DNA of 64,000 nt, from the NCBI GenBank assembly GCA_938002665.1, contig CALLAE010000012.1:28616-92615 (forward strand). The letters run 5' to 3'. The notes below the pieces were generated by a model that saw nothing but the letters and a program-made list of their open reading frames with translations, was not told the origin of the DNA and did not search any database. The translations under genes were made by a program, and so were the position numbers. Shown here one piece after another: positions 35,542 through 42,825 of the stretch; position 1 is the first letter of the stretch; each line of letters begins with the position of its first letter. The DNA is from an uncultured Saprospiraceae bacterium. Lineage in GTDB: Bacteria > Bacteroidota > Bacteroidia > Chitinophagales > Saprospiraceae.

Positions 35542-35694
35542 TCTAAAATCTAAAATCTAAAAATCTAAAAATCTAAAAATCTAAAAGTCTAAAAGTCTAA
35601 AAGTCTAAAGTCTAAAAGTCTAAAAGTCTCAAGTCTAAAAAATCTCAAGTCTAAAAAATCTAAAAGTCTAAAAGTCTAAAGTCTAAAATCTAAC
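35542..35694. repeat. microsatellite array A: about 20 tandem 7-9-nt units (TCTAAAA / TCTAAAAG / TCTAAAAA, two TCTCAAG)
   Basis: I read it directly from the sequence. Its last unit overlaps the stop codon (35690-35692) of the four-helix-bundle gene. Confidence 0.95.
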
Positions 35695-36049
35695 CCTTCT
35701 TAATCTTGATCCGAAATACATTTATCATTTTTTGTAACTCAATTATCTCTGATAAAATTTCATCTGCAGTCCACTGCTTAATATATCCAAGCTCCTTGCA
35801 AATTATTACTTGGGTATCCAGTTCAGTAAGTGATCCCATTGCAATATTTAAAAAATGTACAAGTTGCTTAGGAGTATTACGTCCACAACCTTCAGCTATG
35901 TTTGAAGGCACAGAAACCGAACACCTTCTAATTTGACTAGTCAGTCCAAAAACTTCTTCTTTAGGAAATGAGCCAGACACTTTATAAATAAGTAAACTGA
36001 GTTGAATTGCCCTTTGCCAAATCTTCAGTTCCTTAAAATTGTGATTCAT
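35690..36049 (-). CDS. four-helix-bundle protein (23S rRNA intervening-sequence protein / Avd-like family)
   Basis: 119 aa with FKELKIWQRAIQL...SQIRRCSVSVPSNIAEGCGR...FLNIAMGSLTELDTQ, the characteristic pattern of this family. Confidence 0.85.
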   Translation of the reverse strand: MNHNFKELKIWQRAIQLSLLIYKVSGSFPKEEVFGLTSQIRRCSVSVPSNIAEGCGRNTPKQLVHFLNIAMGSLTELDTQVIICKELGYIKQWTADEILSEIIELQKMINVFRIKIKKG

Positions 36050-36050
36050 T

Positions 36051-36177
36051 TCTACAAGTCTAAAGTCAAAGTCAAAGTCTAAAAATGTAAAATCTAAAAG
36101 TCTAAGGTCTAAAAGTCTAAAGTCTAAAGTCTAAAAAGTCTAAAAGTCTAAAAATCTAAAGTCTAAAAAGTCTAAAA
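36051..36177. repeat. microsatellite array B: about 17 tandem units of the same TCTAAA(A)G family, same orientation as array A
   Basis: It fills the whole gap between the fadB-like stop (36180) and the four-helix-bundle ATG (36049). Confidence 0.95.
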
Positions 36178-40818: not shown

Positions 40819-40853
40819 AACAAAGAATAGTACATTATTGAGAAAGAATTAGG

Positions 40854-40881
40854 AGCTGCGAGAGATTGCGGCTTTTTTTTT
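40854..40881 (+). terminator. rho-independent terminator after the SCP2 gene, immediately before the repeat array
   Basis: AGCTGC-GAGAGATT-GCGGCT (6-bp stem with one G.U) followed by a run of 9 T. Confidence 0.6.
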
Positions 40882-40900
40882 GTCTCTCTTGAAGAATTGT

Positions 40901-41517
40901 TTCGAAAGACAAAGGGTGCCAAATCGTCCACTGTCTTGTCGACCTTGTGGAGACGACTTCAAAACTTGGAAGTTAGTAGTTGGTTAAGTTGAAGTTTTCT
41001 GCGCTTCACTTTGTTGCGGTCGAAAAGACAGAAGTTGAGGATTCTATTACTACCACTTGTTTTGTCGACCTTGTGGAGACAACTTCAAAACTAGGAAGGT
41101 AGTGGTTGGTTAAGTTGAAGTTTTCTCCGCTTCACTTCGTTGCGGTCGAAAAGACAAAGGATTTAGGTTTCTTTCAGTGCCACTTGTTTTGTCGACCTTT
41201 TGGAGACGACTTCCAAATTAGAAAAGACAGTGGTTGTTTAGGTTGAAGTTTTCTCCGCTTCACTTTGTTACGGTCGAAAGGACAAAATAGTCTAGGTTTC
41301 TTTCGGTGCCACTTGTTTTGTCGACCTTGTGGAGACGACTTCAAAACTAGGAAGGTAGTAGTTGGTTAAGTTGTAGTTTTCTTCGCTGCACTTCGTTACG
41401 GTCGAAAAGACAGAAGTTGAGGATTCTATTACTACCACTTGTCTTGTCGACCTTGTGGAGACAACTTCAAAACTAGAAAGGTAGATTTTGCTTCACTATA
41501 TTTTGGTCGAGAAGTCA
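40901..41517. repeat. tandem hairpin-unit array, left block (partial right arm plus units 1-5)
   Basis: Units lie at about 40929-41030, 41054-41156, 41181-41284, 41310-41412 and 41436-41517 (the last internally deleted). Consensus: CACTTGTCTTGTCGACCTTGTGGAGACAACTTCAAAACTAGGAAGGTAGTGGTTGGTTAAGTTGAAGTTTTCTCCGCTTCACTTCGTTGCGGTCGAAAAGACA. Linkers are 22-25 nt. Confidence 0.95.
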
Positions 41518-41533
41518 AGAAAATAGTTTTAGA

Positions 41534-41848
41534 CTATTCTTCTACATGAATAAACTCAGGATTTAGGGATAGCAGTTTAGGGTTTGTGCTTTTGATGAGA
41601 GTATTTTTCTTTGATCTATTCCATTTTTTTAGCTGTTTTTCTCTTGCAATAGCATCATTCACATATTGGTAGATTTCGTAATAGACCAATTCATAACAGT
41701 AGTACCTGCCTGAAAAGTATTTTACATTTCCTCTGTTTTCAAAATGTTCTTTTAACCTTCTGGAAAGATTTTTTGTAACACCTATGTACAGAGTAGTTCT
41801 AGCTGGATTGGAAAGTATATAGGTATAGTAGGTATGGTCCTTTTTCAT
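41534..41848 (-). CDS. GIY-YIG nuclease family protein (small stand-alone URI-domain type)
   Basis: 104 aa with YYTYIL...LYIGVT...RRLKEH...AIAREKQLKKW, which matches the GIY / YIG / Arg / Glu core order of the fold. It is embedded in the tandem repeat array. Confidence 0.85.
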   Translation of the reverse strand: MKKDHTYYTYILSNPARTTLYIGVTKNLSRRLKEHFENRGNVKYFSGRYYCYELVYYEIYQYVNDAIAREKQLKKWNRSKKNTLIKSTNPKLLSLNPEFIHVEE

Positions 41849-41904
41849 TTTTAAAGCTATTATCTCTGCTAAGTTAATGAAGACTTATATGAAAAGGTTA
41901 TGTA

Positions 41905-42809
41905 TACTGTTTGTCTTGTCGACTTGTGGAGACAACTTCCAAAAAAAATGAGTAGACAGTGGTTGGTTAGGTTGAAGTTTTCTCCGCTTCACTTTGTTGC
42001 GGTCGAAAGGACAAAAAGTCTTGGTTTCTTTCAGTATCACTTGTCTTGTCGACCTTGTGGAGACGACTTCCAAAGTAGAAAAGACAGTGATTGTTTAGGT
42101 TTCTCCGCTTCACTTTGTTACGGTCGAAAAGACAGAAGTTGAGGATTCTATTACTACCACTTGTCTTGTCGACCTTGTGGAGACAACTTCCAAACTAGGA
42201 AGGTAGTGGTTGGTTAAGTTGAAGTTTTCTCCGCTTCACTTTGTTACGGTAGAAAAGACAAAAGTCTTGGTTTCTTACAGTGCAACTTGTCTTGTCGACC
42301 TTGTGGAGACAACTTCCAAACTAGGAGGTAGTGATTGGTTAGGTTGAAGTTTTCTCCGCTTCAGTTCGTTGCGGTCGAAAGGATAAAGGATTTAGGTTTC
42401 TTTCAGTGCCACTTGTCTTGTCGACCTTGTGGAGACAACTTCAAAACTAGGAAGGTAGTGGTTGGTTAAGTTGAAGTTTTCTCCGCTTCACTTCGTTGCG
42501 GTGAAAGGACAAAAAGTCTTGGTTTATTTCAGTGCCACTTGTTTTGTCGACCTTTTGGAGACGACTTCCAAATTAGAAAAGACAGTGATTGTTTAGGTTG
42601 AAGTTTTCTCCGCTTCACTTCGTTACGGTCGAAAGGACAAAGGGTTCCAAAAATTCGCCCACTCTTTTTATCGACCTTGTGGAGACAACTTCAAAAAAAA
42701 TTGAAAAGACAATGATTGGTTAGGTTGAAGTTTTTTCTGCTTCACTTCGTTTTGGTCGAAAAGACAAAGGGTTCTATTTACGCTTCAGTTTGTTTTGATA
42801 CTAAAGACA
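41905..42809. repeat. tandem hairpin-unit array, right block (units 6-12 plus partial right arm)
   Basis: Units lie at about 41905-42013, 42038-42134, 42158-42260, 42283-42385, 42410-42511, 42536-42639 and 42660-42766, with a partial right arm at 42781-42809. Orientation is the same as the left block. Confidence 0.95.
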
Positions 42810-42825
42810 AAGTATGAAGGCTTTC

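Follow-up and report, generated by a model that had tools for sequence, protein, structure and literature searches.

Nucleases of the Ssn family, which act on single-stranded DNA (ssDNA), and the hairpin repeats that they target were described by Chenal et al. (Nat Commun 2025; PMC11893778). SsnA of Neisseria meningitidis is a single-domain GIY-YIG protein of 94 amino acids (aa) that belongs to cd10448 (GIY-YIG_unchar_3), a CDD family, and its binding to the hairpin repeat NTS (CGTCATTCCCGCGMAVGCGGGAATCYRG) is confined to ssDNA and to one strand (PMC11893778). The cut site is located a few nucleotides (nt) upstream of the hairpin; cleavage depends most on the three nt before the palindrome, and binding depends most on the C after it. 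Residues Y6, Y17, and E64 are essential, as their mutation abolishes cleavage, and SsnA does not bind RNA (PMC11893778). Across phyla, at least one Ssn-related motif (SRM) was found beside 71% of Ssn homologues, and SRM were found on both sides of 42% (PMC11893778). The likeness of these systems to repetitive extragenic palindromic (REP) sequences, with their BIME clusters and RAYT transposases, and to IS200/IS605 elements was drawn by the same authors.

Here, we describe a locus in a 64-kb stretch of DNA from an uncultured Saprospiraceae bacterium (contig CALLAE010000012.1; this whole stretch is referred to as the window), in which a gene for a GIY-YIG nuclease is located inside a tandem array of 12 hairpin-forming units. 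The original prediction, which was made from the sequence alone, was that the nuclease and the units are a cognate repeat-plus-nuclease pair resembling REP and RAYT, and that no GIY-YIG-associated hairpin repeat family had been described. The idea of a cognate pair was supported by homology to SsnA, by an SRM-type architecture, and by hairpins at 7/7 other Bacteroidota loci. The claim of novelty was incorrect, since an account of the Ssn/SRM family had appeared in 2025 (PMC11893778). Our analysis indicated that this is very probably an Ssn/SRM locus; that is, a gene for an Ssn-family GIY-YIG ssDNA endonuclease together with a cluster of its cognate hairpin targets. This kind of pairing is already in the literature, and the window holds a Bacteroidota example of it, with a variant of the motif and an unusually regular array.

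An ssn-type gene inside a 12-unit array

The ssn-type gene (41534..41848, minus strand) encodes a small single-domain GIY-YIG protein of 104 aa, which is under about 150 aa. The Pfam GIY-YIG domain (E = 7.8e-17) covered residues 7 to 81, and no other domain was present. When the protein was compared with SsnA of Neisseria gonorrhoeae, 81 residues aligned at 44% identity with a score of 65.9 bits (pairwise E = 1e-20), and the alignment covered residues 5 to 83 of the 94 in SsnA. The SsnA reference in this comparison was the orthologue read from an N. gonorrhoeae locus (L041), not the N. meningitidis entry CAX49033.1. The published threshold for Ssn homology is a blastp E value below 1e-10 with at least 75% cover (PMC11893778); the window protein passed this threshold, and its E value in a proteome-sized database was estimated to be about 1e-12. 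In addition, Y10, Y21, and E70 of the window protein aligned with the essential residues Y6, Y17, and E64 of SsnA. The match to the UPF0213 structure 1zg2 reached only 22.6 bits, which placed the protein much closer to SsnA. NCBIfam and PDB sequence searches with the nuclease yielded only generic or distant GIY-YIG matches, and an exact look-up of the protein sequence yielded no record. The nearest named homologues were those of Hymenobacter, Siphonobacter, Fulvivirga, Pedobacter, and Spirosoma.

The 12 units of the array (40932-42766) share one orientation and are split 5 + 7 by the nuclease gene. Specifically, units u1 to u5 form block A (40932..41517) and units u6 to u12 form block B (41912..42766), as determined via Tandem Repeats Finder (TRF), an nhmmer profile of the unit, and a unit alignment; neither block was assigned a strand. 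The units started at 40932, 41058, 41185, 41314, and 41440 in block A and at 41912, 42042, 42162, 42288, 42414, 42540, and 42664 in block B. The start-to-start distances were 126, 127, 129, and 126 nt, then 472 nt across the gene, and then 130, 120, 126, 126, 126, and 124 nt; hence, the modal period was 126 nt and the range outside the gene gap was 120 to 130 nt. TRF gave the same period, 126, for the repeats to the left and to the right of the gene (4.4 and 6.8 copies, with 81 to 85% matches). In a search of the 64-kb window, the nhmmer profile recovered 12/12 units with E values of 1e-20 to 6e-42 and found nothing beyond the array, with the best outside match having an E value of 0.8. The unit starts, TRF, and the nhmmer profile agreed with the predicted 12 same-orientation units with a partial right arm at each edge, and the unit alignment reproduced the outer arms, the inner arms, the apical region of ~27 nt, and the 15-nt "bulge" as they had been described. 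The palindrome GTCGAC was counted in 11/12 left arms, as predicted.

The array is located between convergent genes, namely, those for SCP2 (plus strand) and OsmC (minus strand), and the GIY-YIG gene is the only gene inside it; both points had been predicted. It was also predicted that the array is non-coding, for the reasons that its period is not a multiple of 3 and that all frames are broken. The array is indeed non-coding, as each block contained 6 to 16 stop codons in every one of the six frames. However, the statement about the period does not hold for the modal period of 126 nt, which is a multiple of 3. This multiple (3 x 42) had raised a coding array as a candidate, which was ruled out by the 6 to 16 stops per frame. 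The OsmC-side edge of the array was also present in an independent short-read contig (L001), which then broke off within the units; a genuine repeat would be expected to cause such a break.

Pairwise identity between units ranged from 70 to 94%; the edges of the array were decayed, and u5 carried an internal deletion. The closest units were not adjacent to one another (u2, u8, u9, and u10 at 89 to 94%; u1 and u4 at 90%), which pointed to recombination or segmental duplication within the array. Promoter-like and terminator-like sites in the array region were not in excess relative to shuffled sequences. Identical sigma-70-like matches (TCGACA, 16 nt, TAGAAT) were seen on the minus strand at 41041-41068, 41423-41450, and 42145-42172. 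These three matches span "A-type" spacer/left-arm junctions, and the regional count was not above that of shuffled sequences; Bacteroidota promoters follow a different consensus.

Two inverted half-sites in each unit

In the original prediction, the 103-nt unit was treated as a single long hairpin interrupted by a bulge. A better reading of this "long hairpin" is a pair of inverted half-sites of ~25 to 36 nt, one per strand, with the left half-site on the plus strand, followed by the apical region and then the right half-site on the minus strand. In the half-site form, GTC is followed by a stem of 5 nt, then GA, then a short GC mini-stem with a loop, the complementary stem, and C. An example of a left half-site with a short (4-nt) loop is GTC-TTGTC-GA-CC-TTGT-GG-A-GACAA-C (41441..41465, plus strand), and an example of a right half-site with a long (11-nt) loop is GTC-TTTTC-GA-CCGC-[11-nt loop]-GCGG-A-GAAAA-C (41120..41155, minus strand). 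The 15-nt "bulge" is the loop of the right-hand half-site, and the left arm carries the right-arm motif in inverted, short-loop form; it is this mutual inversion of the two half-sites that gives rise to the long hairpin. As a whole, the long hairpin of the unit was only modestly more stable than shuffled sequence (z of about -1.2 to -1.9).

With two half-sites per 126-nt period, there are about a dozen oriented sites on each DNA strand, and the GTC heads of adjacent half-sites converge on 24-nt spacers. GTC preceded the stem in 7/12 left and 9/11 right half-sites; a C followed it in every left half-site (12/12) and in the majority of right half-sites. The nuclease gene replaces one of the 24-nt inter-unit spacers, and the half-sites that flank the gene point their GTC heads at it (41517 and 41913).

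A strict motif pattern (GTC, 5-nt stem, GA, 3 to 30 nt, complementary stem, C) matched 11 times in the 2-kb array, with one of these matches spanning a unit junction and being no true half-site. The same pattern had 4 matches in the 62 kb of the window outside the array, and shuffled sequences gave 1.6 per 64 kb. Eight matches were located within 500 nt of the gene, split 3 + 5 between its two sides, including the match at 42009-42053, which is the one that spans a unit junction. Thus, oriented hairpin inverted repeats of 20 to 50 nt, with the triplet and the C, were found on both sides of the gene and no more than 500 nt from it.

The N. gonorrhoeae locus L041, which we found via tblastn of a plasmid collection, served as a control. 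There, a 94-aa open reading frame (ORF) is located between canonical NTS repeats, and the heads of the nearest repeats face the gene (at 1382 and about 1766), as they do in the window. The L041 record (NZ_CP119140.1) and NZ_CP119142.1 are two whole N. gonorrhoeae chromosomes of 2.17 Mb that are labelled as plasmids, and the ssnA locus in L041 is unannotated.

Remnants of right-arm half-sites were present at both edges of the array. At the left edge, a partial half-site (TTTCGAAAGACAAAGG, about 40897..40916, minus strand) was read directly just downstream of the terminator-like hairpin of the SCP2 gene (40851-40876). At the right edge, a decayed half-site (42778..42823, no strand assigned; nhmmer E = 0.009) adjoins the OsmC stop codon, and its sequence was also present in the independent contig L001.

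Homologous loci and the history of the locus

The original prediction had proposed checking whether GIY-YIG homologues elsewhere adjoin such repeats. We inspected seven independent Bacteroidota loci with homologues of 50 to 66% identity (L022, L032, L033, L042, L043, L044, and L045), and such hairpins were found within a few hundred nt of the nuclease gene at 7/7. Tandem arrays were found at 3/7, with periods of 174, 242, and 29/71 nt. At L022, repeats of 174 nt that bear ATTTCTCAATCGTTCCTCAATCGAAATGAC and an inverted short-loop copy surround the gene. At L032, the gene is located among repeats of 242 nt that bear CATCTCGACCTTGCGGAGAGATC, and it stands in place of about 105 nt of a repeat unit. 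In the L033-L037 group, two inverted hairpins (GTCATTCCGAGCGCAGCGAGGGAC and others) follow the gene and are in turn followed by a 29-nt array, and a 71-nt array that contains the hairpin is located upstream of the gene. The three assemblies with the 29-nt array were about 92 to 94% identical, and the number of copies was 14.4 in L033 (4447-4859), 26.7 in L035 (2137-2904), and 10.7 in L034 (3503-3809). The 29-nt unit resembles the flank of the adjacent hairpin, and gene callers placed spurious ORFs across the array. We rejected the idea that P0040 is one identical protein found in two contexts, as the loci are syntenic and the neighboring "genes" are spurious ORFs over the 29-nt array.

At L042, which is on a Spirosoma plasmid, the inverted pair GTCATCCCGAGGAACGAGGGATC ... 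GATCCCTCGTTCCTCGGGATGAC is located just upstream of the gene and forms the same composite as the window unit. Similar hairpins were present within a few hundred nt of the gene at L043, L044, and L045. A sequence that looked tRNA-like by eye was seen at about 2450-2525 of L045, after the preceding gene and about 500 nt upstream of the Ssn homologue. Several homologue ORFs that were over-extended at the N terminus translated the motif (e.g., SFEMT, SSLRCDMT, VISTE...GEI, and VIPTKEES).

The most conserved stretch of the right arm was also used as a pattern in a scan of one genome per species. This pattern was found at 18 loci in Christensenella, metagenome-assembled genomes (MAGs) of other Clostridia, Bacteroidales, Flavobacterium, and Saprospiraceae. 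The likeness at the 18 loci spanned about 40 to 50 nt (GAGATTTCTCC-GCTTCACTTCGTTTC-GGTCGAAATGAC), and in the short-loop form (GACCTCTCCGCTACGGTCGAGGTGAC) both sides of the stem were changed relative to the long-loop form. The right arm of the window unit is therefore a copy of this widespread small hairpin. Across all loci, five-position stems were fully paired in 53/282 anchor matches versus 12.6 with shuffled partners, and five recurrent stem variants (ATTTC/GAAAT, ACCTC/GAGGT, TTTTC/GAAAG, TTGTC/GACAA, and ATCTC/GAGAT) accounted for most of the paired stems. This pairing above the shuffled level and the five variants supported the idea that the small hairpin is the conserved element. A MAFFT alignment of the half-sites lost the register of the 3' stem and was left out of the pair counting. 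The left-arm pattern (GTCGACCTTNTGGAGACNACTT) had no matches in genome contigs and one partial match, which was probably due to chance, in metagenome contigs (L021). No GIY-YIG gene was found in the 8-kb stretches that cover the 18 right-arm loci, which was a weak negative because the profile was contaminated with unrelated proteins. In the MAGs of Christensenella and other Clostridia (L003-L020), the hairpins GAGATTTCTCCGCTTCACTTCGTTTCGGTCGAAATGAC and GACCTCTCCGCTACGGTCGAGGTGAC occurred in several copies per contig and often as convergent pairs; examples are L020 128-470 and L013 3884-3956.

A syntenic relative (L002) was about 78 to 81% identical to the window along two flanks of 4.7 and 4.9 kb. 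In this relative, the spacer between the SCP2 and OsmC genes measures 166 nt and contains one decayed right half-site, and the nuclease gene is absent. Because L002 keeps this decayed half-site, the motif is older than the split of the window and L002 lineages. Based on the two genomes that were compared, the array and the gene were either gained and expanded in the window lineage or lost in L002.

A second small repeat-embedded gene was observed in the window. This 119-aa gene (35690-36049, minus strand) is located between arrays of the 8-nt microsatellite TCTAAAAG; the array at 35542-35693 has 19.6 copies, and the one at 36051-36177 has about 17. Its product is a four-helix-bundle protein (TIGR02436, E = 4e-38) that is distantly similar to Avd of diversity-generating retroelements.

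Weighing the Ssn/SRM assignment

The window locus shares with described Ssn/SRM systems a single-domain GIY-YIG protein of ~100 aa with conserved Y/Y/E residues, oriented GTC-stem-C hairpins that flank the gene on both sides with their heads facing it, and clusters in alternating orientation. It differs from them in stem sequence, in having a GA-versus-A internal loop in the stem, and in having two half-site classes with 4-nt and 11-nt loops. Its hairpins are also much weaker locally and do not match the published SRM string, and its repeats follow one another in tandem with a very regular period of 126 nt, while dispersed copies are absent from the 64 kb.

Several observations weigh against the assignment. 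The published degenerate SRM string, HGTCWYN(0-2)YYVSBRHN(0-5)WNVSBRGN(0-2)RNCYNB, which is a heuristic that matches 71% of Ssn homologue regions (PMC11893778), had no matches in the window or in any of the Bacteroidota loci. Four of the left half-sites have GTT instead of GTC. The ssDNA folds of the half-sites were weak, at -3.6 kcal/mol for the left example and -6.1 kcal/mol for the right example (z of -0.4 and -0.8), compared to -8.9 kcal/mol (z of -3.2) for the NTS of Neisseria, and the left-right pairing of the whole unit, at -17 kcal/mol, was more stable than the local half-site hairpins. The orientation of the half-sites relative to the gene varied among the Bacteroidota loci, and PMC11893778 gives no role for Ssn outside Neisseria. 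In the case of the SRM string, which found 9 sites in the L041 control, the failure occurred at the S and B positions because a conserved GA follows the stem. The string is a search heuristic and not a definition of the family, and the window motif is a variant that falls outside the string. Because such a variant escapes the string, surveys based on the string probably under-count the homologues that are flanked by target hairpins.

Two other types of repeat locus resemble the window. The intergenic mosaic elements of Neisseria are dRS3-bounded arrays with units of 50 to 150 nt and short inverted hairpin repeats in alternating orientation. Like these elements, the window contains an intergenic array bounded by alternating inverted hairpins. 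The ssnA gene of L041 is embedded in one such element; the NTS sites there alternate between the plus and minus strands with gaps of about 75 to 330 nt (most are about 150 to 195 nt), and the locus also holds a 74-nt x 2.7 tandem repeat. However, the unit and motif sequences are unrelated, the window array is far more regular, and the phylum is a different one. REP/BIME sequences with RAYT (TnpA-REP), as well as REPINs, are likewise short extragenic hairpins that occur in inverted pairs and tandem clusters beside the gene for a small ssDNA-specific enzyme by which they are recognized. In those systems, the enzyme is an HUH tyrosine transposase, whereas here it is a GIY-YIG hydrolase. The window also lacks a GTAG-type REP head, and Ssn has no known transposition activity. 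No HUH tyrosine (Y1) TnpA-REP transposase was present in the array, the sole gene being that for the GIY-YIG protein.

This likeness raises the question of whether the window contains a selfish mobile element of the REPIN/RAYT or IS200/IS605 kind, with SRM-ssn-SRM as the autonomous form and gene-less units as non-autonomous copies that the nuclease spreads. The hypothesis was raised in PMC11893778, and it fits the inverted half-sites that bracket the gene with their heads facing it, the missing array and gene in the syntenic relative, the many copies of the motif dispersed in unrelated phyla, and the L032 gene that replaces about 105 nt of a repeat unit. We nevertheless consider it unlikely. 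The units are strictly tandem and share spacers, which argues for local duplication and recombination rather than independent insertions. No target-site duplications were seen, the 62 kb of the window outside the array contained no further copies, and the GIY-YIG fold is hydrolytic. To our knowledge, GIY-YIG enzymes are hydrolytic nucleases for which no strand-transfer chemistry is known.

An array of structured small RNAs, or a type III RNA antitoxin array that acts on or with the nuclease, was judged to be very improbable. The variant positions of the long hairpin are G-U compatible on the plus strand only, and the 29-nt x 14 array of L033 resembles ToxI-type arrays in size; the window also resembles type III toxin-antitoxin systems (ToxIN) in that a tandem non-coding array adjoins a small nuclease gene. 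In ToxIN, however, the RNA units are 34 to 46 nt long and are always upstream of the endoribonuclease gene and co-oriented with it. That layout was not present at the window locus, where the repeats are on both sides of the gene, and the orientation of the array relative to the gene varies between loci. The enzyme family cuts ssDNA rather than RNA, and the characterized homologue, SsnA, does not bind RNA. Moreover, the Rfam 15 covariance models gave no match at the gathering score and only chance-level ones at E <= 10, the fold z-scores were weak, and promoter-like and terminator-like sites were not in excess. A satellite in decay and without function, or an array of the partition or iteron type, in which the nuclease gene landed by chance, also seemed highly improbable. 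Units that are 70 to 94% identical, decayed edges, and a lineage-specific array would all be expected of a satellite. However, a gene embedded in hairpin repeats recurred at 8/8 Bacteroidota loci and in Neisseria, with different unit sequences and the same motif architecture, and the array has metabolic genes of the chromosome as its neighbors, among which genes for partition or replication are absent.

If the locus is an Ssn/SRM locus, the work in Neisseria suggests how it might function. The half-sites would fold when the DNA becomes single-stranded, and the nuclease would bind each of them; replication, incoming transforming or conjugating DNA, and repair are candidate occasions. The nuclease would then cut within the spacers, at a distance of a few nt 5' of GTC and on both strands, and would leave double-stranded DNA and RNA uncut. 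More speculatively, it may restrict or modulate the recombination or integration of ssDNA that bears sites, and the recombinogenic ends may lead to local expansion, contraction, and shuffling of units. Such changes would account for the mosaic structure of the array and for the lack of an array in a close relative.

It is conceivable, although rather doubtful, that Bacteroidota Ssn nucleases generate and remodel tandem arrays of their own targets around the gene and that SRM-ssn-SRM is a self-amplifying or mobile element with a hydrolytic ssDNA nuclease at its core. The unrelated array periods (126, 174, 242, and 29/71 nt) at 4/8 loci, window included, fit this idea, as do the copy-number variation of the 29-nt array, the mosaic array in the window, and the relative L002 that has neither array nor gene.

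The window locus extends the Ssn/SRM pairing to a Bacteroidota lineage; as a class of system, it is not new. Its half-sites fall into two classes, with loops of 4 nt and 11 nt, and these are two candidate substrates for a new Ssn specificity, which is of practical interest since Ssn enzymes are under development as site-specific ssDNA cutters. With its regular 12-unit array and the copy-number variation seen in related loci, this clade is suited to asking whether Ssn drives repeat expansion.

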